Shown here in pieces: positions 16,704-39,569 of a stretch of 43,513 nucleotides of DNA. Within the stretch, counting starts at the first letter, position 1. Every line of letters starts with the position of its first letter. The notes beneath the pieces were generated by a model. The model made no database searches, was not told the origin of the DNA, and saw nothing but the letters and a program-made list of their open reading frames with translations. The stretch lies in the sequence record NZ_CP058956.1, one strand, 5' to 3'. A program made the position numbers and the translations under genes. The DNA is from a plasmid.

Positions 16704-17051
16704 TGGTATATGTATCTCTCCCTAATTCTTGATGCCTAATGAATTGATTATACTATATTATAATGATTTTGAAACACCTATTTGTGCCAAGATTGAGGAA
16801 GTACGTCCTTGATTGCTGAGGATTGTTTTGAGAGTGAAGTGAAAGTAAATTTATACCACTTTAACTAACCTAACATCTAAATTCCCTTCAAACTATCTAT
16901 AAACTTGGTTAGGTATCGTGCTGCTTACCGCTTCATTACGGAAATATTCCGCGATGAGGCTCTTTTTGTTTACTGTAAACCGGAGAGCTAAAGAGAATAA
17001 AAAAGGGACCCCAAGCCGTGTTTGACGACTTAAGATCCACAGAAAGATTCT

Positions 17052-17226
17052 CCCAAAAAAGGAATTGCTTATGTTATTCAGAACTACCAGATGAGTATGC
17101 AGGCCCCATCACCAGGCTCGGCGACACGGAGCAGCAATAGGGCTCACCCGAGGCGACGGTAAGCATGGCACATGCGGCCCGCCGGAGGGGAGACCAGAGC
17201 GCGGAGTAAAGCCGAGCCTGGCAGCC
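17052..17226 (-). repeat. GC-rich structured repeat, copy 1 (shortest copy)
   Basis: Homologous to 28795-29006 (same orientation) and, in reverse complement, to 36901-37108 and 38861-39020. Shared core: 'gggctcac(c/t)cgaggcgacgg(t/c)aagcatggcacatgcggcccgccggag'. Confidence 0.7.
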
Positions 17227-17286
17227 AAATATTTTGACTGGTCCCCTGTCAATAAAATAGACAATTTAAATAGAGACTTTTTTGTC

Positions 17287-18165
17287 CTATGCCACGACTA
17301 AATTTTGAATTTGAGTTTGATACTCATCTTCAAGTTGCTTTGGTGATTTGAATCCACAGTGACTGTGAATTCTAACTGTGTTGTAAAACGTTTCAATGTA
17401 CTGAAAAACTAGTCGTTTAGCTTCGGAGTATGAATGGATTTTAAACCGATTTATCCATTCACGCTTAATCAAGGCGTGAAACGACTCAATGCAGGCATTA
17501 TCCCAAGGATAAGCTTTCTTTGAATAGCTTAATGTCATGCTAGCTGTAACTTGATTGTAAGCTTCAGACGTAAACTGACTACCACGATCACTGTGCATGA
17601 TTAATGGCTTGCTAATATGGCGACTGTGCTTAGTCTTTTCAATAAGTGGGATGACATTCGATACCTCCAAGGTTTCAGATAAGTCCCAACCAATGATCCG
17701 TCGGGAGTACAAGTCCATAATACTGGTTAAATAAACGAATCCGTCATGAACTGGAATATAAGTGGTGTCAATGCACCAAACGGCGTTTGGTCGCAATGGA
17801 TTGAACTGCTCGTCTAAAATATTTATTAGCTGTTTATCAAACTTAGAATTGCGAGTGGTAGTCGTCCAAGGGGTTAGGTAAACGGCGTGAATGCCAAGTT
17901 CACGCATATACTTACCAACAGTTCGTTCAGCGATCTTATATCCTTTTGAGCGAAGTTCTTGGGTGATTTTGCCGGCACCGTAAATACAAAGGCTTTTGAG
18001 CCAAATTGCTTTAATTTCACCTTGAATAAACTTCTTCCGAAGCTTTCGCGGTGATTGGTGATTATGACGCTTTTCTCGTTGATAGTAACCACTTCTTGAG
18101 ATTCCAACATAATCACACATACCATTGATGGAAGGGTGGGATTCCAAAGCGTGCTGAACGTCCAT
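17287..18165 (-). CDS. IS3-family transposase OrfB (DDE integrase domain)
   Basis: 292 aa with the DDE region 'WCIDTTYIP...HSDRGSQFTS...DNACIESFHALIKRE'. Confidence 0.85.
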   Translation of the reverse strand: MDVQHALESHPSINGMCDYVGISRSGYYQREKRHNHQSPRKLRKKFIQGEIKAIWLKSLCIYGAGKITQELRSKGYKIAERTVGKYMRELGIHAVYLTPWTTTTRNSKFDKQLINILDEQFNPLRPNAVWCIDTTYIPVHDGFVYLTSIMDLYSRRIIGWDLSETLEVSNVIPLIEKTKHSRHISKPLIMHSDRGSQFTSEAYNQVTASMTLSYSKKAYPWDNACIESFHALIKREWINRFKIHSYSEAKRLVFQYIETFYNTVRIHSHCGFKSPKQLEDEYQTQIQNLVVA

Positions 18166-18188
18166 TTCTTGGTATACCTTTTCGGTAG

Positions 18189-18491
18189 TTACTTGCTCAG
18201 AATCCCGATTGATTTTTTTAATACTTCGATCGCTCCTTCAGCGTCACGAAGTTGACGCTTTAGTCGTGCAATCTCCTTGTCCTTATCGCTGGCAAAATTA
18301 CCAGAGCCACGGCCAAACTCCCCAGTCTCAGTAAACAGCTTAATCCATTTATGTAATGTACTAGCCCCAATACCTAGATTCTTACTTATTTCATTCATGG
18401 TCATGTGATCCTTGTTATCTAAGTAATACTGAACGGCCTGTTCCTTAAATTCCTTGTCATAACTGTGCTTCGTCATTATTTGATCCTCCAA
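18189..18491 (-). CDS. IS3-family transposase OrfA (HTH)
   Basis: 100 aa with HTH 'MNEISKNLGIGASTLHKWIK' and a leucine-zipper-like C-terminus. Confidence 0.85.
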   Translation of the reverse strand: MEDQIMTKHSYDKEFKEQAVQYYLDNKDHMTMNEISKNLGIGASTLHKWIKLFTETGEFGRGSGNFASDKDKEIARLKRQLRDAEGAIEVLKKSIGILSK

Positions 18492-18619
18492 TTTACTTCC
18501 TTAATTATACTAAATCAGAGTCTCTATTTAACTTGTACACTTTTTATTCTAGGCCCAACAACTCCAAAAAGAAGGACAGGTTTCGATAAATCATGATGGA
18601 GTATTTGAAGGAGGAACTA

Positions 18620-19087
18620 ATGACAAAACAGCAAGGCCACATACGTTTTGGGGTGACTGCAAGAAGAAACCATCCAATTAAAATCAGATATTTCAAACGT
18701 CTAAATGAAACGTTTCCAGATAATCGAAACCATATTAATGCAAAAGGAGACTTCTTCGTATATGCACAATTAAGGGCTAATAGCAACGGATCGAAGTATT
18801 CGGTTGTATTCATTTCCAAAGGATGGAGCATATCCGTTAGAGTCTATAGTCCTTTTTTTCAAAAAGAAGATCTCCTCAAAATTCCACACATTTTTGTAAG
18901 CAAGTCAAATTCAGAGCATGGTTATGTTTCACTATGCCTATATAAAAATAATTTTGGCCATGCTGAATTCAGATTTGGGGACAGACTGGATACTTCGATC
19001 ATAGCCTGGACAAAAGAATGGCTTTATTTTTACGAACTATTTTTAATTACTGGGAGATGGTATGGAAATGGTGAGCATCCACAATAA
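18620..19087 (+). CDS. hypothetical protein (AT-rich cassette, gene 1)
   Basis: ATG at 18620 with RBS 'aaggagg' 6 nt upstream. The ORF track shows an alternative upstream start at 18593. About 155 aa, with no motif I can assign. Confidence 0.45.
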   Translation: MTKQQGHIRFGVTARRNHPIKIRYFKRLNETFPDNRNHINAKGDFFVYAQLRANSNGSKYSVVFISKGWSISVRVYSPFFQKEDLLKIPHIFVSKSNSEHGYVSLCLYKNNFGHAEFRFGDRLDTSIIAWTKEWLYFYELFLITGRWYGNGEHPQ

Positions 19088-19919
19088 CAAAAATAATCTA
19101 AGAGAGGTAAAGACTTATAGATTTATAGCTCTCCAAACTAAACCTCTCATAGCAACAATTTCATTAGCATCCACGATTTACTATTTTTTTCGAAACGTTT
19201 CAAAAGTCACTCTCAACACTCTTGGTATTGACTATAAGCTATCAATACATCCCTGGTTTATTAGGCTCTTTATTTCCCTAATCCTATCCTATTACGCAAT
19301 GCTCATTATCTTTAAATTCATCGGAAAAGAAAGATTATTGCTCCCAAACACGTATTACTTAGTACCTTCATTTATCATTAAGCTTGCAGCTGCGATAGGT
19401 TATTGTCATAAGGGGAGCGCGGCCAATATTCCAACTTGGCAATATATTGATTACCTATATAATAATTGGGCCAGATTATCTATTGACGTTCCAGAAGTAA
19501 TAGATGCCAGTAAAGATACTTCAATCAAAGTATCAGAAATAAGGAGTGATGCTGAGGATGACAAAATCCTTTCAATTATTATTTCCGATACCTATCCTAT
19601 AAATTTGAATACATTACCTTCAACTATCAAAAACCATAGCTATGTCGTCTTGCAAACTATGATCAATGGCAAAGTTAACCTAGGAAGACGAGCCTATAAT
19701 CCAGAATTAGTCAAAATTTTCATAGATCAAGTAAATAAATCTAAGGAAAATGGCATTACAACAATTCAACTGTTGTCTAACACCAATCCTAAACACATTA
19801 AGGAAATAATGAGGGAAGCCTTTTGCAATGCTGGACGCAGTCATATAAAACACCTTGTAGTATATGAAAATCCTAGAGAGAATAATTATAATTTTACAAA
19901 ACGCCACAATATTTTCTAA
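19062..19919 (+). CDS. hypothetical membrane protein (2 N-terminal TM helices plus a soluble domain; AT-rich cassette, gene 2)
   Basis: 285 aa. RBS 'gggagatgg' lies upstream. Its start overlaps the end of the previous ORF by 26 nt. Confidence 0.5.
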   Translation: MEMVSIHNNKNNLREVKTYRFIALQTKPLIATISLASTIYYFFRNVSKVTLNTLGIDYKLSIHPWFIRLFISLILSYYAMLIIFKFIGKERLLLPNTYYLVPSFIIKLAAAIGYCHKGSAANIPTWQYIDYLYNNWARLSIDVPEVIDASKDTSIKVSEIRSDAEDDKILSIIISDTYPINLNTLPSTIKNHSYVVLQTMINGKVNLGRRAYNPELVKIFIDQVNKSKENGITTIQLLSNTNPKHIKEIMREAFCNAGRSHIKHLVVYENPRENNYNFTKRHNIF

Positions 19920-23719: not shown

Positions 23720-25071
23720 GGGAGTGTAAAATATTTTGTGTAAATTTCTAAATTAAATTGAAAAGGGAAAGCCTTCCCCGTATGATTAAATCGCTAAACA
23801 CAATCAAAACGGAGGCTTTCCCTATGAACCAGTTTAACAAAGAAATTCTTGACGCGCTATCTTCTGACTCTAAAACATCATTAAAAGATGTCTTTCGCAA
23901 TCAGTTAGAACAAACCGTCAATACATTACTTCAAGAAGAATTGTCGGCAGTCTTAGGCTACCAACCCTATGAGCGTAACGACAGTTCCGCTCATGGGGAC
24001 AACGCCAGAAACGGATCGTATCAGCGAACCATCGATACTGAATTTGGACCAATCAATATTACGGTTCCGCGCGATCGTAAGAATAAATTTCGTAACGCTT
24101 TATTCGAACCATATTCACGGCGGACAGATACTCTGGAATCGATGATCATTAAAATGTATTCCAAAGGCATCACGACTCGTGAAATAGCTGATTTAGTTGA
24201 GCGCATGTATGGCGATTACTATTCACCAACTACCGTTTCAAATATTACTAAGCAAGTTGGCAACTTGGTTGAAGAGTTTCATAACAGGACCTTTAAGCAC
24301 TCACAGTATGTTTGCGTGTTCTTAGACGCTACTTATATTCCGCTCAAGCGCGGAACTGTTGAGCGCGAAGCGGTTAATATCGCGATTGGAATTCGTAGTG
24401 ACGGCGGTAAAGAAGTCTTAGACTTCTCGGTAGCACCAAACGAAAATGGTGAAGCATGGCGTGAACTACTTGAAAGTTTACGCAATCGAGGAATTGAACA
24501 GGTTCAGTTATTCATCGCCGATGGTTTTATTGGGCTCGAAAATGTGATTGCAGAAATTTATCCAACCGCTAAGTTTCAGCGCTGCTTAGTCCATGTGCTT
24601 CGTAACCTCACATCACATGTGCGAAAAAGCGATATGCGAGATTTGATGAGCGAATTTAAAGAAATTCGCCAATCTGAATCACTTGAAGAAGCAAAACAAG
24701 CTTTAGATAACTTCATTTTGAAATGGAAAAGCAAATATAGCAACCAGATGCGAAAATTGGGTAAGTTAAGTAACTTATTCACCTTCTACGAATTTCCGCC
24801 AAGCATTCGGGCATCAATTTACTCAACAAATTTGATTGAAGCTTTCAACAAAAAGTTGAAGAAGAAAATTCGCCAGAAGGAGCAGTTTCCAAATGAGGAT
24901 GCCCTTCAACGATTCGTGACAACTCAAATTCTAGAATACAATGACAAGTTCGAAGAACGAGCACATCGTGGATTTCGAGGAAGCAAGGATACCTTGGATT
25001 CCATGTTTATTTAAGTAAGCATTTCATACAAAGAAGGATTTTCAAAAGTACACAAAATTATTGACACTCTC
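23720..25071 (+). mobile_element. IS256-family insertion sequence, copy B (1352 bp), identical to copy A and inverted relative to it
   Basis: Same IRs as copy A. Flanked by the 8-bp direct repeat 'ccaaaaat' at 23712-23719 and 25072-25079. Confidence 0.9.
23758..25014 (+). CDS. IS256-family transposase
   Basis: 418 aa, identical to the ORF at 4568-5824. Confidence 0.9.
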   Translation: MKRESLPRMIKSLNTIKTEAFPMNQFNKEILDALSSDSKTSLKDVFRNQLEQTVNTLLQEELSAVLGYQPYERNDSSAHGDNARNGSYQRTIDTEFGPINITVPRDRKNKFRNALFEPYSRRTDTLESMIIKMYSKGITTREIADLVERMYGDYYSPTTVSNITKQVGNLVEEFHNRTFKHSQYVCVFLDATYIPLKRGTVEREAVNIAIGIRSDGGKEVLDFSVAPNENGEAWRELLESLRNRGIEQVQLFIADGFIGLENVIAEIYPTAKFQRCLVHVLRNLTSHVRKSDMRDLMSEFKEIRQSESLEEAKQALDNFILKWKSKYSNQMRKLGKLSNLFTFYEFPPSIRASIYSTNLIEAFNKKLKKKIRQKEQFPNEDALQRFVTTQILEYNDKFEERAHRGFRGSKDTLDSMFI

Positions 25072-26028: not shown

Positions 26029-27954
26029 TTATCCCATTGGGTACTCGATTTCCTGACCACTTTGCTCATCGGATGGCAGGTTGTTTTCAGCCCGATACAG
26101 CGCACGGCAGAAGGATTGCGTCGACATCTTGTTGCTTACGGCAAACTTGACGCCGTACTTCTTGCAGGCCTTAGCAAGCGACCAGGACGATGGATGGTTC
26201 GCGTAGGACTTGATCATGATCACCATATCAAGATTCTTGACCGCCTTTTCGATCTTCTTGCTCTTGCCGGCGAACGCGTTGATCAGCCGTGGATCCCCGT
26301 TGCAGGCCTTAACCGTGGCTTTCAGAATCTCGCCGTTTTGACCATTGCCGATCGCGATGCCGACTTTTTGTCCTTTCAGATCGACCCTCAGCTTCTTGGC
26401 GTCTTGAGTTCCTTGCTGCATGCTGCCAAAGATCTGCTTGCTTAAACCAAGCGCGAGATGCATCTTTTCCTTTTTAGCGGGCTTCTTTTCCGCGGATTTC
26501 TGCTTTGGTGCCTTTTCTACCGGCTGATTATCGTCTTCAAGCGGGTAGACCCAGCGAATCGTCATACTGTCCTGGGCGTTGTCATCGTTGGCGTACCAGG
26601 CCAGATCCACAATATCGCCATCCTGCACCATGAACTGAATGCGGTCATCCTTGACGTGATAGGTAACCTTGGATCCATTGACCTTCAGCCGCTTTCCATA
26701 GATGTTATGGGTAACGACCAGCTCGCCATCCTTGTTTTCGACTACGGCTTGGCGGAATACCTCAATCGGATCATAGTCCAAATCCAGATGGCCAGTGACC
26801 CGTTTGATATATGCCTTGGATAATGATTGGTAGGGCTCGCCATCAGCTGTAACGATATCGCCATCTTGCAGATTCAGCATTCGGATCATCTTCTCGCTGA
26901 TAAAGAACGCCTGCTGACCGTAGGCATCCAACAGCTGAGCCCCAGTCAGACGACGCTGCACGACGTATTCGCCAGGATCCAGATCAAACACTGACGATTG
27001 ATCAAGCAATTCGGCAAATGATGGCTCAGTTTCTGGTTCGGAACGCGTTGGCGAAACCTGCTCCGTATCAGCTTCGTTCTCGGCAGGCTTCTCAACTGGT
27101 TCATTATCAACATTGACCATGTCAGCCGCTTTAGGTTCTTCGGCCGGTTCAACGGTCTGCTTGTCCGCTGCGCTTTGCCGTTCTTTCAATAGCGCGTCAA
27201 ATCGTTGAGCCGTCTCTTCCTTGATCAGCCCCTTCATCTGCACCTCAGCAACTGCTTCTTGAAAGGCGGTCAGCTTGGAAGCATTATCGGCTTTCTTGGC
27301 CAGATCAATGCCGGTCGCGATCAGGCGCTCGATCAGCTGACTAATATTTCCCTTACCAATCAGCATGTCCTGATATGTTTGCCGTGCCTGTTTCAGCTGC
27401 TGCGACGCGATCAGATAGTAAGCGTTGGTCGTTGCATTGTCTTCATCGCCCAGATTATAGTGGCAGTCCTCGAGATTCTTCTTCAGCGTGCCAAACGATG
27501 GCTGATATTCTGAATCCTTGACTACTCTGCGCAGCTCGTTGGCGGTCGTTTCCATAATCGACTTAAAAATATGAATCGCGTCATACTGGGCCAGCGTCAA
27601 GGCATCGCGCTTTTCGGCTGGATTTTCAGTATTATCCTCGTCAGAAACTGATACCTCATCCTGCTCAGTCTGAGTGCCCTCATCATTGTCAGCCATCTCA
27701 GTTTCTTGAATATCTTCAACGGCCTCGCTTGCTTCATTCTGCTCAATTGCCGTGTCTGGCGAGGATGCCGTTTCAAGCGGCTCAATCGTCTCTTCATTTC
27801 TTTCAGGCTCGCTTGGCAATCCGCTGCTCATCGGATTCTGATAGCCGGACTGATGCCGTAACAGATTCACGATCGACTGGACTGCTTCAATTCCTTCAAT
27901 GCTGGGATTAGTGCCCTTAATAATATTAATTATATCTTTTCGATAATCATACAT
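26029..27954 (-). CDS. hypothetical 641-aa protein (acidic central region, basic C-terminal domain)
   Basis: Long ORF immediately upstream of the iteron arrays. No motif I can assign. Confidence 0.55.
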   Translation of the reverse strand: MYDYRKDIINIIKGTNPSIEGIEAVQSIVNLLRHQSGYQNPMSSGLPSEPERNEETIEPLETASSPDTAIEQNEASEAVEDIQETEMADNDEGTQTEQDEVSVSDEDNTENPAEKRDALTLAQYDAIHIFKSIMETTANELRRVVKDSEYQPSFGTLKKNLEDCHYNLGDEDNATTNAYYLIASQQLKQARQTYQDMLIGKGNISQLIERLIATGIDLAKKADNASKLTAFQEAVAEVQMKGLIKEETAQRFDALLKERQSAADKQTVEPAEEPKAADMVNVDNEPVEKPAENEADTEQVSPTRSEPETEPSFAELLDQSSVFDLDPGEYVVQRRLTGAQLLDAYGQQAFFISEKMIRMLNLQDGDIVTADGEPYQSLSKAYIKRVTGHLDLDYDPIEVFRQAVVENKDGELVVTHNIYGKRLKVNGSKVTYHVKDDRIQFMVQDGDIVDLAWYANDDNAQDSMTIRWVYPLEDDNQPVEKAPKQKSAEKKPAKKEKMHLALGLSKQIFGSMQQGTQDAKKLRVDLKGQKVGIAIGNGQNGEILKATVKACNGDPRLINAFAGKSKKIEKAVKNLDMVIMIKSYANHPSSWSLAKACKKYGVKFAVSNKMSTQSFCRALYRAENNLPSDEQSGQEIEYPMG

Positions 27955-28104
27955 AATTCTTCACCTCAATTTTGATTTTATCAACCAATCCGGACAATAA
28001 GCGTCTATGTATGAAAAAAAGCCCTAAAAATTTTTGAAATTATGACAAATAAACCAAGTCAGCGGAGTGTAAGTTGAACCAACTCGGAACCAATCTTTTA
28101 TCGT

Positions 28105-28296
28105 GGATTATTTACTTTTTACAATTCACAATTTACAATCTACTATTTACAATTTATTATTTACATTGTAGAAGTTTTCTGCAACGGGATATAAATGCCC
28201 ATATATCAGCATATCTTAACCGTAAATAATCCACTTTCCACAATTTACAATCTACTATTTACTATTCATAATTCATTATTTACATTGTTGGAGTTT
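28105..28296 (-). repeat. iteron array A1
   Basis: Tandem degenerate 11-14-bp units. On this strand they read 'ttacaattcacaatttacaatctactatttacaattt', the reverse complement of 'AATTGTAAATAGTGAATTGTAAA'. Confidence 0.7.
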
Positions 28297-28535
28297 ATTA
28301 AATAAGCAAAAGTCTGCCGATAAAGATATCAAAAAACAAGAGATACCTGCTCATCATTCATCAAAAAAGACGACCCGTTATGATCAGCGGATCGTCTTCT
28401 GATATTAAAAAATCGGAACTGGCTTTTGCCAATCCCGATTCAATCAATTAATATGGCAGCTCTTTAACCTTTGGCGAGTTTTGAAATGGCCTTTAATCCT
28501 CTTTTATCAACCTCGATCATTGATGATAATTTATC

Positions 28536-28722
28536 ATTCACAATTAATTGTTTACAATCCACTATCTACTATTAACTATTTACATTGTAGAAGTTTATAA
28601 CATTATCACTTAAGACCCTTTGTATAGCGGTTTATACTACGTTAACATTTTACAATTCACAATGCACAATCTATTATTTACAATTCATTATTTATTATTT
28701 ACATTGTATAAGTTTACAAACA
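28536..28722 (-). repeat. iteron array A2
   Basis: Same unit family as A1, in two sub-clusters separated by about 55 bp. Confidence 0.7.
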
Positions 28723-28794
28723 GCAACGAGCAGTATCGCTTAACCGACGTAGATATTATCCCAAATCCGTCAATTTCGGTCCTGTAATTTTTAA

Positions 28795-29006
28795 CCCCAA
28801 AAAGGAATTCCTGATGTTATTCAAGACTACATGCACTCATATATGACTAGAACTTCCTGTATATAAATATAAAGAGGGTGTATATGCATCCCCCAAGCCG
28901 GCGGAGCATGAGCGAATCATGGGGCTCACTCGAGGCGACGGCAAGCATGGCACATGCGGCCCGCCGGAGAGGAGACCCGTGGAGCGGAAGCGGAGCCGGC
29001 CTGGGG
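28795..29006 (-). repeat. GC-rich structured repeat, copy 2 (adjacent to the tnpB 3' end; candidate omegaRNA/right-end module)
   Basis: It lies between the iteron arrays and the tnpB stop at 29173. The interval 29010-29170 holds further perfect hairpins, for example 'ccaccgatt aaa atcggtgg'. Confidence 0.6.
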
Positions 29007-29172
29007 AGCGTCTAAAACCAAAGAAAAAGCCAAGCCGTCAACTACCACCGATTAAAATCGGTGGCTTGCAGCTCACAAGCCTAACGGCTTAGAAGTAGTA
29101 ACGCACTAACGTGCTTCTTCTGCTGTGGCTACATCATCGGGTGGTTGACGACACCCGTTTAACCAACGAGGT

Positions 29173-30417
29173 TTACTCATTAGTCGTTAATTTACTAAAA
29201 GATGGACGTTCATTGCCGCTAATATACTGAGTACCCAAGAGTTGAATGTTCATGGCGCCAATCCGATCGTCATTAGATTTGTACCCGCATCGATCGCAAA
29301 CATACAAATGTTCTTGATGGTTACGATTGTTTTTCCAGATGCGACCACATTTTGGACAACGTTGGCTCGTGTATTTAGCTGAAACTTGAATTACTTCGCT
29401 CCCGACTAAACGAGCCTTATAAGTTAAAAATTGGCCTAGCTGATAGAAAGCCCAGGATACTTGTTCGTAGCGCTTTGCTTTTGTAACCTTTTCAGTCGCA
29501 AATCGTACATTAACTAGATTTTCCAAAACAAAAAGGGTATCAGCACCATAACGGTTAACGAGTGTCTTTGACAACTGATGATTGACATCAGTCATCCAGC
29601 GGTTCTCTCGTTGACCAATCTTCTTTAATCGGCGCTTGGCTGATTTAGTTCCCTTGCTTTGCAGCTGTTGGCGTAATCGTTTAAATTTACGGCGCTTGCG
29701 TATTACTTCTTGACCCTGGAAAAACAACGTTTTCCCTTGCTCATCATACGCAGTTGCCAAGAATCTTAATCCTCGATCAATACCGACTACATGTTGTGAT
29801 TGTTCTTTTAGGTAGTCTGGCAGTTCCTTGGTTGCACTAATGTGCATGTACCACTTACTGCCAATATGTAATATCTTAGCTATACCAAATTGCCAAGTGC
29901 CGTCTAAATATTGATCAAATCCTTGGCAAGTAAATGGTGCTTTTATACGACCATTAACTGTATTGATAGACATTACATGATTGTCTTTAAGTGACCAATC
30001 ACGATTGCGTTGTAAATCTAATTGAGGTCGTTTAAAACTGATAGGATACCACAGCCACTCTAGAGTGCGGGACTCACTTTCCCAAATATCATTGCCGTAT
30101 TGATCCTGCCTGCCTGTGTTATAACGATAAGGCTTTTGAGCCAATTGTGTTTTAACGGTTCGGTAACGAGCAACGACATTACGAATTGCTGACTGAGCCA
30201 TTTGCGCTTTTAATCCATAATCGCTTCGCAATTGATGGTACAACGCCTTATTTAACTTCGCTTGAGCCATTTCAAAGTTATGGTTAAACATATACTGAGA
30301 AACTGCATTACAAGCCTGCCGGTAATTCTCTAAAGATTTAGCTAAAGCTGATTCATCGAGTGGTGACTGTAACTTTAATTTACATTTAATAGTAATGGCT
30401 TGTTGCATTAGGTTCAC
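29173..30417 (-). CDS. tnpB: TnpB (IS200/IS605-family OrfB, RNA-guided nuclease; tnpB-only, IS1341-type)
   Basis: 414 aa. RuvC-I 'VVGIDRG', RuvC-II 'VLENL', zinc finger 'CPKCG...CDRCG' and RuvC-III 'NDDRIGAMNI' are all intact. Confidence 0.85.
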   Translation of the reverse strand: MNLMQQAITIKCKLKLQSPLDESALAKSLENYRQACNAVSQYMFNHNFEMAQAKLNKALYHQLRSDYGLKAQMAQSAIRNVVARYRTVKTQLAQKPYRYNTGRQDQYGNDIWESESRTLEWLWYPISFKRPQLDLQRNRDWSLKDNHVMSINTVNGRIKAPFTCQGFDQYLDGTWQFGIAKILHIGSKWYMHISATKELPDYLKEQSQHVVGIDRGLRFLATAYDEQGKTLFFQGQEVIRKRRKFKRLRQQLQSKGTKSAKRRLKKIGQRENRWMTDVNHQLSKTLVNRYGADTLFVLENLVNVRFATEKVTKAKRYEQVSWAFYQLGQFLTYKARLVGSEVIQVSAKYTSQRCPKCGRIWKNNRNHQEHLYVCDRCGYKSNDDRIGAMNIQLLGTQYISGNERPSFSKLTTNE

Positions 30418-30720
30418 CTCACTTTCTTCATAGCTTAATTATACTATATTTATATATGAAGTTTAAGAAAGAAAAAAGGTAAAAAAGAAGAGGTTGGAAA
30501 AAAAGTCTCAAAACTAAAGAATCGCTAGGAACCACGTTGCTGAAAACGTTGATTTCTAGCGATTTTTAATATTACTATTCTCTAAAATTCATCTGAAAAT
30601 ATAGTTTTTTCCCAACCTCTTGAATGGGGGGTTCCTCCCGCCACTAAAGTAGCGGGTATCCAGCCTATGCATTATCAATGAACTCGTCACGACCTGGCTT
30701 ATTTTAAATTAACGTCACCA

Positions 30721-31913
30721 CTAGCCGAAATACTTCAGCAGCGCGGTAACCTCTTCCTTGGTCAGCTCAAAGGACGTATTGCCGGCAAATCGTTCATGAA
30801 GCACCTCATCCGCGTTCTTGGCCAACTCTTCGTTCGAGACGCCATAGTCGGAAAATGGATGCAGTCCGACCTGCTCGTCACGGAACTTCAGATAGGCCTG
30901 CTTGGTGATCGCGCCAATTTCGTCTGGTGTTTCATCTCCAGTAAACTCGGCGCCCAGAATCTTGCCAATCTCCTTGACCTTCTTAGACAGTACAGAGACC
31001 GACATCTCAAGCACGGAAGGCAGAGCATAGGCAACCGCCTCACCATGGACGAAATGATACTTGGATCCCAGAATGTGAGCTTCTGAATGCGCCACGATGG
31101 TTCCAGACTGGTTAAGAATCCAGCCCGCCAAGTTGGTAGCCACCATCATTCGCTCACGATACTCAATGTTCTGGCCTTCCGCAACCGCTTTAGGCAGATA
31201 GTTGGCACACAGGAACATGATCTTTTCTGAGATGGCATAGGCCACGGGACTGCTTAGATTGGACAGGTAGCCTTCTGCGGCGTGCGAGAAGACGTCCAAA
31301 CCGCTGGCAATCGTTTGGCGCTTTGGCAGACTCAGCGTCAGTTTAGGGATCAGCAGCGCGTAATCACTCAAGATGCGGTCCGATAAGATAGCATTCTTCT
31401 CAGGGTCGTTTCATCGGTAACTACGAGCGCGTTGGACATCTCGCTCCCAGTACCGGCCGTGGTAGGCACGCTGATCAGACACTTGAAGTCACGGATAAGC
31501 GATTCGTCTTTTACGTAGTCGAGGATATCGCGGCTGTCGCCATTGCTGGCCACGATGTCGATTCCCTTGGCACTGTCCAGGCAGCTCCCACCACCGATTG
31601 CGATCACGCAGTCCGCGCCAAAGTTTTTCATTGATTCCGCGCCCTTATTGATGACGCTGGCAGGCGGGTCTGGTACGATCTCGCTGTAGACCGCCGTCTC
31701 AATGCCATTCTCATCCATTTCGGCGAGCATTTCCTGTACGGCTGGCACGCCCATCAAAAACTGATCGAGCACTACCATTACGCGCCGTTTATCCTCTAGC
31801 TTGAGAATCTCCATGATTGATTTGGCCAGATCGTGTTCGACGACGACCTTGATCGGTTGCTGCATTCTGATTTTCATATTCCACGCCCCTCGCATTCTCT
31901 TGATTGATGACAA
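30721..31913 (-). pseudogene. iron-containing alcohol dehydrogenase, split by a 1-nt frameshift near 31400
   Basis: The 181-aa N-terminal fragment ('GGGSCLDSAKG' NAD motif) and the 216-aa C-terminal fragment overlap at 31368-31371. Restoring one G in 'ctg(g)agaag' rejoins them as '...TTLEKNAILSDRILSDYALLIP...'. Confidence 0.75.
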
Positions 31914-32729: not shown

Positions 32730-34265
32730 CTATGCCATTCCCGGATTGAGACCGTTTTGCTTGAAGCCGAAAATCTGCTTTTTGAAATCCTTAAGCGAAA
32801 ATGGCGGCTGGAATTTCTCATGCTCTGAACTTGGCGACTGCTGCTCCGTGTTTGCTGATGACGCGAAACGACGCTTGTCATCTGGCGCGGCTTTAGGATA
32901 GGCGTCCATAAATTCAGCCGCGGTCTGCCCAATGGCCTTTTCCACGATTCGCTGTTGAGCGTCGTTGGATTGCGGCACGTTTTTTTCGTTGGCGATCCGC
33001 TTCGTCAGCCAGTCTACCGGATAGTCGGCAAATTGATTGTTTTGAGCGCTTGGCTGGGTAATGGCATCGTTCATCGCGTTAGATGTCTGAGCGTTCCGAT
33101 CAAAGTTACACGTGAAATTTGAGCTGTTTGCGTCAACGGGATTGCTGGACTGCCAATTCTGCTTTGACGGCATGATCGGCACTTCACGGAACTCGTATTC
33201 TGATTCAGATGCTGCATGGCTTTGTGCGGGACTTGGCGCGTCGTCTTCCGGCAGTTTGAGAATTGGAATCTTAGGCGCGCTGCGGAACTGGCTAAGCATC
33301 TCCTGCGTCATGATCCGGAATTTCTTGCGATTCTGGTTCATAGTCGAAAAGCTTGCGTCCAGGAATTCAGCAGCCTTGAGATGATCATAGACCATGTCGT
33401 CCAGATTGGTGATGCCATTGGCGCGATCCGTGTAGAGAATCTGGGCGATATAGGCCGGTGGATTGCTGATTGAATATCTTTTGCTGAGTTTGATGGCACA
33501 GCTCAGCATTCTGGCGCCAAACTGCTTCTGCAGACTTTCCAGATAACGAGCCGTGTAGTTGGTAAGATGCCCAAACTGCGAACGATACAGGGCGAACGCG
33601 AAGTCCAGATCATTATCGTCAACGAGTCCTAAAGAGCGTTCTTCAACCGGCTCATTCGATGGCTTCGTTTTTTGATCATCAGCGGCTGTTGGCTGGTGCG
33701 TGTCGTCAGATTTTGCGGACGCGATGTTGATGGCTTCGTTTTGAATTTTTTCCTCGCGATTTTTCGCGGAGGAATCAATCGAATCTACGTTGTCTAGATA
33801 GTTATGTAATAGCTTTGTCTTACTTGTGTTCACATTTTGCACGTTACGGCGTTCAGATTCTGTACTCCGGGTGAATTGTTGATATGACGAGGTTTGATAG
33901 CTGTTTTGGGTGTTTTCGCGGTGTTCACATTTTGCACTCCGCACGTAATTGTTGACATACACCCGATATTCACTCATTCCGGTTCGTTCAACATGAATCA
34001 GACCAAACTTGATCAGCTTTTTCCGAGCGTTGGTCACGGTATGGCGAGACGTGTGCAGCAAGTCGGCCATCTCATCGTTGGTGAAGTAGATAAATGGCTG
34101 GCCGTTGCTATCGATGAAGCGTGGGTTGCCGTTTTGCGCGTTGCGGATTGAGCCATCAAGCCGTGAGCGGTAGAGAGAATACATCAGCATTGAATTGCCA
34201 TCGAGTTTTCGATAGTTGTCATTTTGGAGCAGGTCCAGCTCGACTTTAACAAATTTTGAAGTCAT
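32730..34265 (-). CDS. repA: plasmid replication initiator, RepA_N family, with a DnaD/DnaB_2-like C-terminal region
   Basis: 511 aa. The N-terminus 'LLQNDNYRKLDGNSMLMYSLYRSRLDGSIRNAQ...FIYFTNDEMADLLHTSRHTVTNARKKLIKFGLI' is RepA_N-like. 'FALYRSQFGHLTNYTARYLESLQKQFGARMLSCAIKLS' is DnaD-like. RBS 'ggaaggag' lies upstream. Confidence 0.8.
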   Translation of the reverse strand: MTSKFVKVELDLLQNDNYRKLDGNSMLMYSLYRSRLDGSIRNAQNGNPRFIDSNGQPFIYFTNDEMADLLHTSRHTVTNARKKLIKFGLIHVERTGMSEYRVYVNNYVRSAKCEHRENTQNSYQTSSYQQFTRSTESERRNVQNVNTSKTKLLHNYLDNVDSIDSSAKNREEKIQNEAINIASAKSDDTHQPTAADDQKTKPSNEPVEERSLGLVDDNDLDFAFALYRSQFGHLTNYTARYLESLQKQFGARMLSCAIKLSKRYSISNPPAYIAQILYTDRANGITNLDDMVYDHLKAAEFLDASFSTMNQNRKKFRIMTQEMLSQFRSAPKIPILKLPEDDAPSPAQSHAASESEYEFREVPIMPSKQNWQSSNPVDANSSNFTCNFDRNAQTSNAMNDAITQPSAQNNQFADYPVDWLTKRIANEKNVPQSNDAQQRIVEKAIGQTAAEFMDAYPKAAPDDKRRFASSANTEQQSPSSEHEKFQPPFSLKDFKKQIFGFKQNGLNPGMA

Positions 34266-34537: not shown

Positions 34538-34807
34538 TTGCCTGAATCTCTAATTCGTTTTATGTTTTATAAAGAACATTCTGCTGCTTATTCTAACCAT
34601 TTTGATTAAAACGGTTACAAAGACATTTTAACCGATATCGATTAAATTTTGCAGTCTTGATCTAACAAAGTTCAAAACGATTTACGCCTTCAAGACCAAC
34701 CGTTTTGGATGATCGATTCTCTAACAACTCCATGTGGTTTTCATATCGATCATTAAAGTAATAATTACACATAAATATTCCTAAATCAATAGCGATTTTC
34801 GGGTAGT

Positions 34808-34957
34808 TAACTATTTACAATTCACTATTAACAATTTACAATGTGGAAGATGAATGAGAGAAAATTGGCAGATTCGAAATCCCTTGTGTCAGAATAGATT
34901 AGAAAAACTCTGCTAATGTTAACAATTCACAATTAATTATTCATTATTTGCTATTTA
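34808..34957 (-). repeat. iteron array A3, between repA and parA
   Basis: 'tatttacaattcactattaacaatttacaatgtgg ... aacaattcacaattaattattcattatttgctatttacag', the same unit family as A1 and A2. Confidence 0.65.
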
Positions 34958-35031: not shown

Positions 35032-35867
35032 ATGAGTGCTACCGTAATGTCCTTTTGCAATCAAAAGGGTGGTGTCGGGAAGACGTCGACGACTGCTTTG
35101 GTCAGCTACAACCTGTCCAAGCTCGGCTACAAGACGCTGGTCATCGACTTTGACCCCCAGGCAAACATCACGCAGCTCTTTTGAAGACCAAGACGCGTGG
35201 CCAGTCTGCCGTGGCAACGATCAACAAGTCTTTGATGACGGTGTTGCAGAATGAGGAACCGCTGACCAACGCGATTCTGTCAATCAATGAAAATCTGGAT
35301 CTGATTCCAACGGCGGTTGACTTCTCTTTGTACGGTCGTTTTCTTGAGAACAAGGAATCTGATGAAAAGAGCCGTGTTTCCTACTTCCGCAAGCTGCTTG
35401 AAGATCAGCTGATTGATCGTTACGACTTTATCTTTATCGACGTTCCGCCTACGCTGGGACTTTCCAACGATACGGCCTTCTACGCCTGCGATCAGATTAT
35501 CATCGTTCTGCAGACGCAGGAACGTTCTCTGGTTGGTGCTGAATACCTGATTGAATATCTGCAGCGGGTAATCATCAATTCCTTCCAATCCAAGGTTGAC
35601 GTTATCGGCCTGCTGCCAGTGCTGTCCAAGCGCGACTCTTCCGTTGACGCCAAGATTCTTCAGTCAGCAAGCGAGGAATTTGGCGAGGACAACATTTTCA
35701 ACAGCCACATCACGATCATGGAACGGGTCAAGCGGATGGACATGACCGGGATCACCGACAACGACAAGGATGCTTGGGACCGCAAGACGCAAAACGCGTA
35801 CAAAGCGGTCGCCAAGGAAATTATCGAACGACTGAACAAGGGCAAGCAAGAAACGGATAATCAATAA
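35032..35867 (+). pseudogene. parA: ParA/Soj-family partition ATPase, interrupted by a 1-nt frameshift in the T run at 35179-35182
   Basis: Walker A 'NQKGGVGKTSTT'. Reading T4 as T5 joins '...DFDPQANITQLF' to 'LKTKTRGQS...' (the ORF at 35181-35867). RBS 'gaggtg' lies upstream. Confidence 0.8.
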
Positions 35868-35882
35868 AAGGAGCGATTTAAA

Positions 35883-36212
35883 ATGGGCTTGTTAAATCAC
35901 GACATGAAGAAGGATGAACGTCCAGAAATGAAGCACGGCGCGGACTTTGTTGTTGAAAAACAGGTCAAGCGCGAAGACATCGTTCAAAACTCTGAACAGG
36001 TTACCTACTCTACCAACGTGCGGGTCGACAACCACGTTCGCAATCAGCTGACGGCATTGGTTAACGTTGGCGCGGCCAAGAACGTGCGCGAGCTGGAAAA
36101 GAAGATGATCAGCACGGCCGTCGACCAGCTGCCAAACAGTGATCAGTCACGCTTCTACCAGATCCTGCGTATTCTGGAAGAAAAGGACATGCTGACATCA
36201 CGCAATAAGTAG
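35883..36212 (+). CDS. small ParB-like partition / DNA-binding protein (putative)
   Basis: 109 aa, 15 nt after parA, with RBS 'aaaaggag'. The position and size fit a type Ib partition adaptor. Confidence 0.5.
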   Translation: MGLLNHDMKKDERPEMKHGADFVVEKQVKREDIVQNSEQVTYSTNVRVDNHVRNQLTALVNVGAAKNVRELEKKMISTAVDQLPNSDQSRFYQILRILEEKDMLTSRNK

Positions 36213-36900
36213 CATTTGCTGCGTGAACGCGACACGTTAAATAAATATGTAAGCTAAAAGGCCTGATTCCACGATCAACTGGAGTCAGGCCTTTAGTAGT
36301 TATTGAAGAATTGGGGATTGCCGAAGCTGACACGCCGTAGTAGCATTAGACCCAGATGTAAGAACGGAAAAGCAGCGCTATAAAATGACTCTCATTAAAA
36401 AAGAGAAATACCCCCTATATTGACTAATCCAATGTCGAGTTTTTATTTCTCAATTATCGATAGTAGAGAAAAAGTAATTTAACATAAAGAAGTTGAAAAA
36501 TTGGAGCAAAAGGAACATCCAGAAGATTCCAAGAAGCCAAAGAAGCGTCCGGGATCATCGGAGCAAAAGCAGAAAGCAGATTCGGAAAACACAGGCCGCG
36601 GTTTAGAGTTCTGGCTGCATCGTCATCCTAGGTCGGTATCTGAATCATACATGCGTTTCTACGCGAAGAAACAGTATGAAGAGGAGCAGAGAAAACGGTT
36701 AGGGATTCCAAACGAGCGGAACCACGACAGGACTAGATGGTATAGAAGTCAGAAAAAATAAGTGAAGCAGACGCTGACATTAAAAATCTTTAATGATGAA
36801 ATCGCGTCGATGCAACATAAAATATCATAGTGATGGACTAGCAAACCCCAGAGTCGAGCAAATCGATTCTGGGGTTTTTATGTTCCATAGTATTAACGCT

Positions 36901-37108
36901 CCCCCAGGCCGGCTCCGCTTCCGCTCCACGGGTCTCCTCTCCGGCGGGCCGCATGTGCCATGCTTACCGTCGCCTCGAGTGAGCCCCATGTTCCGCTCAC
37001 GCTTCGCCGGCCTGGGGGATGATGCATATACACCCTCTGCATATACAGGACGTTCCGGTCATGTATGAGTGCATGTAGTCTTGAATAACATCAGTAATTC
37101 CTTTTTGG
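36901..37108 (+). repeat. GC-rich structured repeat, copy 3
   Basis: It begins with the 13-nt terminal inverted pair 'cccccaggccggc ... gccggcctggggg' enclosing about 95 nt. It is preceded by a hairpin-plus-T-run at 36848-36882. Confidence 0.7.
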
Positions 37109-37192
37109 AGCTAAAAATTTCAAGACTGAAAATCAGCAGATCAATGGTTGATTTTGTAGATGAAAAGAAGCTTTTAATTTCATCCTTTGAAA

Positions 37193-37375
37193 ACTTCTAC
37201 AATGTAAATAGTGAATTGTAAATTGTAGATAGTGGATTATTCATAGTGAATAGTAAATTATTAACGTCACAAAAAAGCCATTATAAAGGCATTTATAGCA
37301 CATCTATATAAACTTCTACAATGTAAATAGTGAATTGTAAATAGTTGATTGTGAATTGTAAATAGTGAATTACCA
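37193..37375 (+). repeat. iteron array A4
   Basis: 'tacaatgtaaatagtgaattgtaaattgtagatagtggatta ... tacaatgtaaatagtgaattgtaaatagttgattgtgaattgtaaatagtgaatta'. Confidence 0.7.
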
Positions 37376-37551
37376 GCCATCAATAATGATTTAGATTAGT
37401 CCGTTGTTTGAGCAGCATGTTTATAACCCGTGAATTAGATCTAAAGCAAGACAAGAGGCGAATGTCTGGCGAATCATTAAATCTCATCATCTTGCTTCGA
37501 TGCTTTATCAAAATGTATATACAAAATAGTCAAGTGTATCGGGGATGTGGT

Positions 37552-38568: not shown

Positions 38569-38860
38569 AACCTCCCATGGTAAAAGAAAAAGGACCGTCG
38601 ATCAATAAGGTATGATCGGCAGCCCATAGAAAATAGGGAATATTAATCGTTTCTTGTTTAGAATGCGTTGAGTGCTTGTGCATCCTAAAAGAAACGCCCC
38701 GCCGAAATCATGTCAGCTTGACGAATAATTAGAATGCACATGTCCAAAGCTTTATTCAGAAAATCAAACTTGATCATGATCTCGACCCCCTTTGTACAAA
38801 ATAGAGTTGGCATAATACTAGGCTTATCCTTGCAGAATGTCAACGAGATTTTTTGTTCGT

Positions 38861-39020
38861 CCCCAGGCCGGCTCTGCTTCCACTTCACGGGTCTCCTCTC
38901 CGGCGGGCCGCATGTGCCATGCTTACCATCGCCTCGAGTGAGCCCCATGTTCCGCTCACGCTCCGCCGGTCTGGGGTTATGCATGTAGTTTTGAATAATA
39001 TCAGTAATTCCTTTTTGGGG
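38861..39020 (+). repeat. GC-rich structured repeat, copy 4
   Basis: 'ccccaggccggctctgcttccacttcacgggtctcctctccggcgggccgcatgtgccatgcttaccatcgcctcgagtgagcccc...'. Confidence 0.7.
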
Positions 39021-39102
39021 CCAAAAATTACAGGACTGAAAATGACGAATTTAGAGTAGTATCTATGATGGCTAAGCGATACTGATTGTTGCTTTTCGAA
39101 AA

Positions 39103-39290
39103 CTTTTACAATGTAAATAGTGAATAATGAATTGTAAATAGTAGATTGCGCATTGTAAATTGTAAAATGTGAACTCAGCTAAAATGGCTATATAAAGGCA
39201 TTTAAGTGATAATGTAATAAACTCATACAATGTAAATAGTGAATAGTAAATTGTAGATTGTAAAAAGTTGATTAATAATGAAGGTAATGT
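39103..39290 (+). repeat. iteron array A5
   Basis: Same two-sub-cluster architecture as A4, with the conserved inter-cluster segment 'ctatataaaggcatttaagtgataatgt'. Confidence 0.7.
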
Positions 39291-39569
39291 TGTACAATTT
39301 GGGACTGCCATAACCATACATTTTCAAGTTGCCATTGATTCAGAAAAAATTGAAATAAAAAAGTGCGAAACTCAATACCTTGCATAGAGTATAGATAGAG
39401 GGGCAGAAGAGAAGATGCTGTTTGAAATATGTTTTGCCAGATGAACGATCAAGCAAGTATCCCCTACCTCTCATGCTTTTTCAGATTATCTTCCTCGCCG
39501 CGTTCCATCCCAGGGCGCGGCTTTTTGTTGATAAAAAAGCATGACGCGTATCATGCCATGCTTAACTGT

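Follow-up and report, generated by a model that had tools for sequence, protein, structure and literature searches.

Four times in its 43,513 nucleotides, a Lactobacillaceae plasmid of the RepA_N type (record NZ_CP058956.1, the whole stretch of which is called the window below) carries a GC-rich structured repeat, and one of these copies lies close to the 3' end of an intact tnpB gene. Such proximity raises an obvious question: is the repeat the guide RNA of TnpB, or an unrelated object that has come to lie beside it? An original prediction, made from the letters of the window without database searches, leaned towards the first answer, proposing an omegaRNA scaffold or right end and, by extension, omegaRNA-derived miniature elements or orphan guide modules, with a plasmid-associated structured non-coding RNA as its third and least stressed option. 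The comparisons reported here lead elsewhere. The true right end of the TnpB element lies outside the repeat, and the repeat is a previously unrecorded structured family of 36 copies and three subtypes, restricted to plasmids of the Limosilactobacillus mucosae group. As to what the family does, the least stressed option has survived to become the leading explanation, one that we favour tentatively and with somewhat less than even confidence.

The TnpB element and its right end

On the tnpB side of copy 2 (the copy in question), the following features lie on the minus strand:

29173-30417, minus strand: tnpB, 414 amino acids with RuvC and zinc-ribbon motifs (Pfam OrfB_IS605 and Cas12f1-like_TNB; TnpB/Cas12f structures at E = 1.7e-20)
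29037-30677, minus strand: tnpB-only insertion sequence of the IS200/IS605 family, 1641 bp, without target duplication (from the empty site in L002 and L005 and from pMP118 homology)
29037-29230, minus strand: omegaRNA scaffold region, comprising the tnpB 3' end and the right end, with several hairpins (from its fold and from a pMP118 alignment with compensatory changes)
29017-29036, minus strand: flank by the right end, GGCTTGGCTTTTTCTTTGGT on this strand, the stretch that an omegaRNA guide would copy; it lies outside the repeat

The GIDRG, E and zinc-ribbon motifs of the product line up with those of solved TnpB and Cas12f proteins, and the gene at 29173-30417, described as catalytically intact in the original prediction, is a genuine TnpB. 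The limits of the element around it come from two independent comparisons. In L002 (L. allomucosae) and L005 (L. mucosae 6A) the same hairpin is followed by ...GAAAAAGCCAAGCC running directly into ATGAACTCGTCATGACC..., then a terminator and an Fe-alcohol-dehydrogenase gene, and at the L. allomucosae empty-site junction the alignment is gapless over GCCAAGCC joined to ATGAACTCG. Once 29037-30677 is removed, the window aligns to L002 across that junction without a gap; the element therefore measures 1641 bp and made no target duplication. Secondly, the TnpB element of L. salivarius plasmid pMP118 aligns from within tnpB to ...GGTAGTTGAC, which is position 29037, and the likeness stops there, with compensatory changes between the two elements in the omegaRNA hairpins. 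On the top strand of the element, ...GAGTTCAT is the last of the 5' flank, TGATAATGCATAGGCTGGATACCCGCTACTTTAGTGGCGGG opens the left end and CCACCGATTTTAATCGGTGGTAGTTGAC closes the right end. Judged by sequence, these ends, the flank and the lack of a target duplication are as expected for IS200/IS605 elements, and TTCAT is a candidate transposon-associated motif (TAM), mapped to the base by the empty-site comparison.

The right-end RNA (reRNA) or omegaRNA of such elements consists of the tnpB 3' end and the right end, with only its last ~16 nt taken from the flank (PMC8612924). The mapping of the right end and of the guide stretch after it, which the original prediction had proposed as a check, thus gives 29037 and 29017-29036, the guide-donor flank reading GGCTTGGCTTTTTCTT.... 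Copy 2 had been placed exactly at the TnpB 3' end and on the tnpB-sense strand, and neither placement holds. The edge of its hairpin, at 29010, lies 27 nt outside the right end and 163 nt past the tnpB stop codon at 29173; the interval 29010-29172 is made up of 26 nt of flank and the right end of the insertion sequence, not of repeat. Moreover, the polarity of copy 2 is plus (130 bits on the plus strand vs 26.5 on the minus) and that of tnpB is minus.

An origin of the repeat from the omegaRNA or right end, whether as a palindrome-associated or miniature inverted-repeat transposable element (PATE/MITE) or as an orphan guide module, is therefore essentially excluded. In its favour stands only the proximity of copy 2 to the stop codon; set against this are the position of the right end, the opposite polarity of a hairpin lying outside the element, a longest word of 9 nt common to repeat and insertion sequence, and the presence of the hairpin at orthologous sites that hold no insertion sequence. 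No tnpB adjoins 35 of the 36 copies, which bears out the observation that the other three copies in the window stand alone. Since the right end maps elsewhere, the omegaRNA reading falls by the very test that the original prediction had attached to it. A PATE/MITE of IS200-IS605 type has ends that resemble those of a parent element, with subterminal hairpins, and inserts 3' of a fixed tetra- or pentanucleotide; it was also rejected, since the repeat resembles neither end of the one family member that the plasmid carries and its copies have no flanking motif in common. Judging from the empty site, the TnpB element is a later arrival, inserted 27 nt downstream of copy 2 into a terminator shared with the convergent alcohol-dehydrogenase gene, and as a later, unrelated insertion it has no claim on the repeat as its guide RNA. 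A GC-rich hairpin beside tnpB is thus not automatically the guide RNA of that gene, and comparison with an empty site can fix the true right end, the guide-donor flank and the candidate TAM to the base.

The insertion sequence harbours a passenger of its own. On its left-end side, 30489-30622 is an element of ~130 nt with the inverted repeat GAGGTTGG(G)AAAAAA at its flanks. Many L. salivarius megaplasmids have unannotated sequence that matches it at 88% identity, and L023 and L025 have stretches that match it at 98%, away from any tnpB; it gives the impression of a separate miniature element lodged within the tnpB insertion sequence. In pMP118 (L030, 4787-6141) a related TnpB element again lies directly downstream of a parA-DUF5388 operon.

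Anatomy and distribution of the repeat

A repeat finder recovered the element at 17137-17195 and 28887-29006 in one orientation and at 36902-37021 and 38860-38976 in the other, and with an alignment and a covariance model it confirmed the four copies where the original prediction had seen them. The model places the hairpins as listed here, at 76-145 bits, with no more than 34 bits on the opposite strand:

17022-17051, plus strand: site that resembles a promoter by consensus match, in front of copy 1 (type B), with TTGACG, 18 nt, GATTCT, and extending to base 1 of the box
17052-17106, plus strand: AT-rich box of copy 1 (type B) with AAAGGA, 7 nt, ATG TTA TTC AGA ACT ACC AGA TGA, plus linker
17107-17226, plus strand: GC-rich rod hairpin of copy 1 (type B; covariance model 76.5 bits; minimum free energy (MFE) -60.6 kcal/mol, z -3.4)
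28796-28886, plus strand: copy 2, with box 28796-28836, mini open reading frame (mini-ORF) 28814-28846 and insert of ~45 nt
28887-29010, plus strand: GC-rich rod hairpin of copy 2, stem 28890-29007 (130 bits; MFE -68.8 kcal/mol; GC 0.70)
36898-37021, minus strand: GC-rich rod hairpin of copy 3 (144.8 bits; MFE -79 kcal/mol, z -7.4; other strand -65.7)
37022-37110, minus strand: insert and box of copy 3 (box 37070-37110)
38857-38980, minus strand: GC-rich rod hairpin of copy 4 (134 bits; MFE -61.4 kcal/mol)
38981-39020, minus strand: box of copy 4, without insert, the mini-ORF start changed to ATA

In a four-way alignment each copy consists of an AT-rich box of ~40 nt (CCAAAAAGGAATTnCTGATGTTATTCAAGACTACATGCA) and a rod-like hairpin of 118 nt and ~70% GC, set apart by a 45-nt insert in copies 2 and 3 that is absent from copies 1 and 4. 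The box is 5' of the hairpin in every copy, which gives the cassette a clear polarity. The four hairpins are 91-95% identical over ~120 nt, and with a GC content of 0.67-0.72 against a mean of 0.44 for the window (25-38% in their immediate surroundings) they are the sole 120-nt segments of the whole plasmid stretch above mean + 2.5 sd, in keeping with the contrast to AT-rich surroundings noted in the original prediction. Other early impressions needed trimming. Copy 3 has the inverted 13-nt ends, CCCCCAGGCCGGC and GCCGGCCTGGGGG, without a change, whereas the others show slight variation in them. The flanks diverge at the boundary on the 3' side, as had been claimed, but on the 5' side copies 2-4 have a further 300-900 bp of 7-bp repeat arrays in common (302 nt at 83% in one pair); a discrete unit is therefore an apt description of what we call type B below, not of type A, which is part of a larger module that includes those arrays. 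Open reading frames across the hairpin, suspected from the outset to be artefacts, are just that: the frame is not the same between copies, one frame suffers a TGG to TGA stop in L012, L014 and L019, and the candidate ATG is missing from 7 of 22 distinct copies. A small protein gene running through the hairpin was rejected on the same evidence.

How widespread is such an object? Loci were gathered by an exact 21-22-nt word from the hairpin apex. Among 185,579 species-representative genomes the word occurs in three, of which two are L. mucosae and the third is L. allomucosae, in each case on short contigs of plasmid-like character, and it occurs in a further 21 metagenome stretches from the gut; none of the viral contigs searched carries it. 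With the window this makes 36 copies, 34 of them distinct in sequence, at 1-4 copies per contig. A covariance model built from type A and run on the 286 kb of fetched loci scored 76-147 bits on one strand and at most 34 on the other, and found zero copies beyond those with the exact 21-mer. The original prediction had reckoned with a match to a known family, and none emerged: Rfam 15 gave nothing at gathering score in the whole window and nothing on the hairpin at E <= 10 within 28000-29400, a faint HEARO match (E = 3, plus strand, 29037-29180) being noise from the insertion sequence right end on the wrong strand. PLSDB and phage records yielded no true match to cassette or arrays, their sole matches being chance 32-nt ones in Thermus; a search for tRNA and tmRNA returned none, and a literature search on the element and on DUF5388 returned nothing relevant.

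Three subtypes can be told apart. Type A (24 copies) has arrays upstream and stem ends of the kind given above. Type B, represented by window copy 1 and seven others, is without arrays and has instead a TTGACK-18-GATTMT site ending at the box (TTGACT-18-GATTAT in the same place at the other loci); its lower stem differs (CCAGGCTCGGCG/GCCGAGCCTGG), and it was met in three downstream contexts with sharp borders, no empty site having turned up. Type C (L017 and L028) is the hairpin alone in another setting. The closest homologues in PLSDB of the DUF5388 protein of this plasmid are below 50% identity, and the par regions with DUF5388 in pMP118 and in C. futsaii and L. reuteri plasmids have no comparable GC-rich hairpin, which rules out the hairpin as a general feature of DUF5388 par loci.

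Heptad arrays, fold and the candidate RNA

The arrays that precede the type-A copies also precede the partition operon of the plasmid:

28097-28715, plus strand: upstream of copy 2, four arrays of 7-bp repeats (ATTTACA), with ATTTACATTGTAGAAGTTT at the end of each
34795-34957, plus strand: upstream of parA, two arrays of these 7-bp repeats, at whose end is an extended -10 TGATATAAT
35032-36212, plus strand: parA (split ORF; ParA-type ATPase 35032-35867) and the DUF5388 gene 35883-36212 (Pfam AAA_31 and DUF5388)
37191-37384, minus strand: two arrays of 7-bp repeats upstream of copy 3
39100-39280, minus strand: two arrays of 7-bp repeats upstream of copy 4

Tandem Repeats Finder reports period 7 and consensus ATTTACA at 28110, 28240, 28652, 37203, 39112 and 39232, and the arrays before copies 3 and 4 close with ATTTACATTGTAGAAGTTT just as those before copy 2 do. 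The flanking arrays are contiguous 7-bp repeats at several promoters, that of the par operon included, where the last heptads overlap the extended -10. By analogy with omega-type heptad operators and with the iteron clusters around the par operons of enterococcal RepA_N plasmids, they are most likely binding sites of the plasmid's small partition protein, presumed to be the DUF5388 product. Ten ATTTACA arrays occupy four places on the plasmid, four of them in a row between a divergent DUF2325 gene (26029-27954) and copy 2, a layout that suggests several centromere or operator sites for one partition protein. Nearly all type-A copies with upstream sequence available have an array in the same orientation, and in the 24 type-A copies with both landmarks located the end of the last array lies 82-84 nt from the box, across three spacer families that are 55-65% alike; folds of this spacer are weak and inconsistent (-13 to -29 kcal/mol). 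The arrays contain 12-14 sigma-70-like sites, all facing the hairpin, vs 5-6.5 in shuffles, and at 28097-28715 many are of the form TTTACA-17-TACAAT. In the box, AAAGGA and 7 nt lead to ATG TTA TTC AAG ACT ACA..., a possible mini-ORF (MLFKTT...), in whose codons 1-6 the copies that keep the start show ATG to GTG, synonymous CTA, AAA and ACC, and conservative L to I and K to R. The pattern is suggestive of a translated mini-ORF.

What we infer from these features about transcription of the cassette, its regulation and the role of the hairpin can be put as follows. The cassette would be the gene, or the 5' module of a gene, for a structured RNA of about 170-230 nt, and this is the explanation to which we give tentative preference. 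Transcription would start just upstream of the box, in type A from promoters embedded in the ATTTACA arrays and in type B from the cassette's own TTGACK-18-GATTMT site. The arrays would be repressed by the small partition or centromere-binding protein (DUF5388), an analogy drawn from the plasmid's own parA promoter and from heptad operators of the omega type, and expression of the cassette would then follow the partition regulator. The 5' part of the RNA would be AU-rich, with a ribosome-binding site and a mini-ORF of 7-10 codons, and its 3' end would be the 118-nt GC-rich rod with purine-rich internal loops. Such a rod could block 3' exonucleases, thereby setting and stabilising the 3' end, and may offer an invariant purine-rich face (GGAGAGGAGACCCGUG and the apical GCAUG-GCA-CAUGC hairpin) to a partner, which would make it a domain for stability and binding.

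A Shine-Dalgarno sequence with a mini-ORF of synonymous-biased substitutions could also belong to a cis-acting leader, in which a translated leader peptide and the hairpin control a gene cluster downstream, leaving copies 2 and 3 as orphans. Six loci, window copy 4 among them, have a URO-D-like gene ~300 nt downstream on the same strand. In these same six, however, a separate promoter (TTGACA-17-TAGTAT) and a 30-codon ORF stand between the hairpin and the URO-D-like operon; there is no terminator/antiterminator alternative and no T-run; and the operon is absent from about 18 of 24 type-A copies and from all copies of types B and C. In a second context, that of copy 3, the hairpin is convergent with a small ORF followed by parB and parA, in a third, that of copy 2, with the Fe-alcohol-dehydrogenase gene, and several copies have nothing co-oriented downstream. 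We consider a leader distinctly improbable. In the window the promoter-like site and ORF (MIKFDFLNKALDMCILIIRQADMISAGRFF) between copy 4 and the URO-D-like gene occupy 38685-38843 on the minus strand; they are kept in L001 and, more loosely, in L004.

The fold itself bears on the RNA that we favour and on a humbler possibility. Each GC-rich segment forms one long imperfect hairpin, with MFE of -60.6 to -79 kcal/mol and z-scores, taken against dinucleotide shuffles, of -3.4 to -7.4. In type A the hairpin comprises five short GC helices, 42 pairs in all, with purine-rich internal loops between them (GAAG/GA, GAG/GAA, GAA/GAG, GA/GGA) and GCAUG-GCA-CAUGC, with its GCA loop, at the apex; both arms are purine-rich on one and the same strand. 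Because of three consensus G-U pairs the sense strand of type A folds better than the other (-79 vs -65.7 kcal/mol in copy 3, -68.8 vs -60.4 in copy 2, -61.4 vs -54.4 in copy 4). Across 22 distinct type-A copies the pairing is kept in 95.9% of cells, vs 35-45% with the partners slid. Compensatory changes, which the original prediction had proposed to look for, do exist: the clearest is in L020_5399, where two adjacent positions are altered on both arms (CCCCCCAGCC / GGCTGGGGGG), and between types one apical pair switches from U-A to C-G, although within type A such evidence is thin. The lower stems of types A and B differ at roughly half of their bases and still make the same rod. Furthermore, types A and C show no variation at all in 16 columns (GGAGAGGAGACCCGTG) beyond the word used to gather the loci, whereas ~40% of the other columns vary, as they do in the lower stem.

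Could the family nonetheless be a decaying, functionless or selfish repeat, a backbone segment of arrays, box and hairpin duplicated among related plasmids by recombination and by rearrangement driven by insertion sequences, its copies alike because they diverged recently or through gene conversion? It is a young and very small family, with a mean column identity of 95%, confined to one species group on a plasmid rich in insertion sequences and split genes; uncompensated transitions build up in the lower stem, L026 has lost 12 nt internally, the mini-ORF start has gone twice, and several copies have nothing downstream in the same orientation. Decay of this kind would not by itself be expected to spare the 16 apical columns, to retain one rod in types A, B and C despite unlike lower stems, to mirror the double change of L020_5399, to hold the array spacing within 1 nt over diverged spacers, or to leave the 21-mer in every copy in 286 kb that the covariance model can detect. 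We regard this explanation as unlikely.

Several observations weigh against the structured RNA and explain why our preference for it is tentative. On the sense strand no T-run follows the hairpin in any group, the post-stem sequences being GAGCGTTAAT, ACGAACAAAA, AGCGTCTAAA and CAGCCAAATA, and the terminators near the hairpins face the convergent genes; an intrinsic (Rho-independent) terminator was accordingly rejected as an identity for the hairpin. A decent TATAAA-like -10 directly after ...AGTT, as at parA, is present in about half of the proximal arrays. The mini-ORF start is gone from window copy 4 and from L012/L019, and the two strands of type B fold equally well. Covariation in type A amounts to three double changes, a number reached by 25 of 500 shuffles. 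Among single stem changes C-to-T is about as common as G-to-A, and the rate of variation is similar in paired and unpaired columns; the lower stem therefore bears no sign of strand-specific purifying selection. The invariance of the apical 21-mer is in part ascertainment, since the loci were fetched with that word. Finally, no complement longer than 12 nt to serve as an antisense target was found in the window, so a copy-control countertranscript against rep or par is unsupported.

Part of this would also suit a hairpin that works as DNA, extruded as a single-strand hairpin or cruciform beside the partition arrays. There it might, for example, signal priming of the lagging strand or assembly of a primosome, be a site of recombination, or belong to the architecture of the centromere complex. 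A near-palindrome of 118 nt and 70% GC amid 25-38% GC, with no terminator of its own and a weak promoter case, tolerating both kinds of stem transition equally, is what such a function might leave behind; the strictly kept 82-84-bp array spacing, over spacers whose sequence is not kept, would suit phasing in a nucleoprotein complex, and all four window copies face the rep/par region. The copy-2-type loci elsewhere do not face rep, however, and polarity is fixed relative to arrays and box, which a cruciform does not need. Purines predominate in both arms on one strand, and the bias of the G-U (G-T) pairs is likewise towards a single strand; the motifs known from ssoA origins (RSB, and CS-6 TAGCGT in the loop) are absent from this RepA_N replicon, which shows no rolling-circle Rep or relaxase; and no like GC hairpin accompanies the DUF5388 par loci of the pMP118, C. 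futsaii and L. reuteri plasmids. A function at the level of DNA is, in our estimation, an unlikely one too.

The structured RNA can also be read more boldly, as the first of a class of plasmid RNAs whose expression depends on the partition system. Extra centromere-like heptad arrays would each drive a GC-rich rod RNA with an invariant purine-rich face, and this RNA would titrate or guide some factor of host or plasmid, such as one that regulates copy number, stability or incompatibility. We consider this improbable; were it true, segregation control would be linked to an RNA regulator in RepA_N plasmids of lactobacilli. Transcription of the cassette would make it a new plasmid RNA controlled by a partition regulator; without transcription it would count among the DNA elements of plasmid centromere regions, and as an unusual one. 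Its reach is limited to a single species group and it is a familiar kind of object (a plasmid structured repeat or candidate small RNA), so that the interest is modest.

Plasmid setting and known systems

The RepA_N initiator of the plasmid lies at 32730-34265 on the minus strand. Besides accessory genes, among them those of a sugar phosphotransferase system, the plasmid carries two IS256-like copies and one element of the IS3 family. The IS256-like copies (Mutator-family transposase; 4511-5862 and 23720-25071) are 100% identical and inverted, and bracket 17.9 kb that hold type-B copy 1, the IS3-family element and accessory genes in a composite-transposon-like layout. The IS3-family element (17227-18500; ORFs 17287-18165 and 18189-18491) abuts copy 1; it too was inserted beside an existing cassette, since the flank departs from L008 and L016 directly after ...AAATATTTTGAC. 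Two genes may be defence-related cargo, one for a protein with a SMODS- and ubiquitin-system-associated 2TM effector domain (19062-19919) and one for a 582-aa AAA ATPase (12087-13835). The genes for ParA (35032-35867), Fe-alcohol dehydrogenase (30721-31913) and a umuC-like protein (41910-43372) are each split into two overlapping ORFs and are whole in related loci (ParA 278 aa, alcohol dehydrogenase 385-391 aa); they are either pseudogenes or the product of homopolymer sequencing errors. Running away from the copy-4 arrays on the plus strand, 39340-39540 is a conserved non-coding stretch of ~200 nt with a good terminator at its end (GCCGCG...CGCGGCTTTTT), overlapped by a small hydrophobic ORF (MLFQIIFLAAFHPRARLFVDKKA). 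It is also found beside the type-C hairpins and in L001, L007, L017, L020, L023, L024, L025 and L028; a small RNA and a gene of type I toxin character are both candidate identities for it.

Several familiar DNA signals were considered for the hairpin and set aside. Integron attC sites have the R''/R' core sites RYYYAAC ... GTTRRRY at their hairpin ends, and the ends seen here (CCCCCAGGCCGGC / GCCGGCCTGGGGG) rule them out. AGCGG and GAAGCGG are the Chi sequences of B. subtilis and S. aureus, and the type-A sense strand has the first three times and the second once; a cluster of Chi sites was rejected because type B is without them and copy 4 has lost two. For a MOBQ-like nick site the resemblance of GGTAAG...GCGGCCCGCC to TAAGTGCGCCCT is too loose, four oriTs would be implied, and no relaxase was seen. 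Single-strand origins of the ssoA type belong to rolling-circle replicons; the base of their stem holds an RSB site, and their terminal loop holds CS-6 (TAGCGT/A). With them, and with primosome assembly sites, the repeat has in common a long imperfect hairpin of 100-150 nt that depends on orientation and can recur on one plasmid; unlike them it has neither RSB nor CS-6, no rolling-circle Rep or relaxase nearby, and an orientation that follows the arrays, not any direction of replication evident in this analysis. An ssoA-type origin was rejected accordingly, the loop being GCA, AGCGT occurring in some copies only and outside the stem, and the replicon being RepA_N.

Structured intergenic repeats that stabilise transcripts are known from enterobacteria (REP/BIME) and from pneumococci (BOX and RUP). 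Like these, the repeat is a multi-copy, GC-rich, stable intergenic fold, often between convergent genes, that could shield RNA upstream of it from 3' exonucleases. REP/BIME, BOX and RUP, however, are chromosomal, number tens to hundreds and are shorter or modular, whereas the present family is plasmid-only, has 1-4 copies per contig, and is much longer, polar and tied to arrays. For the arrays themselves the closest parallel is the heptad operators of omega-type ribbon-helix-helix regulators and centromere-binding proteins, such as omega of pSM19035 and the iteron clusters flanking repBC in pAD1. Both comprise runs of 7-bp units, all direct except for an inverted last one, that cover promoters or lie a short way upstream of them, and both recur in several places including the par promoter. 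The repeat ATTTACA and the presumed binder DUF5388 differ from those of the omega system, and the likeness covers the arrays, not the hairpin; we know of no heptad-operator system with a GC-rich hairpin cassette at a fixed distance downstream. The last comparison returns to the opening question. With the TnpB omegaRNA or reRNA of IS200/IS605 elements of the ISDra2 type, the repeat shares the character of a structured, relatively GC-rich non-coding stretch near the tnpB 3' end (PMC8612924). It differs in lying 27 nt past the right end with opposite polarity, in having no similarity to the element, and in being found without tnpB; the role of omegaRNA is filled instead by 29037-29230.

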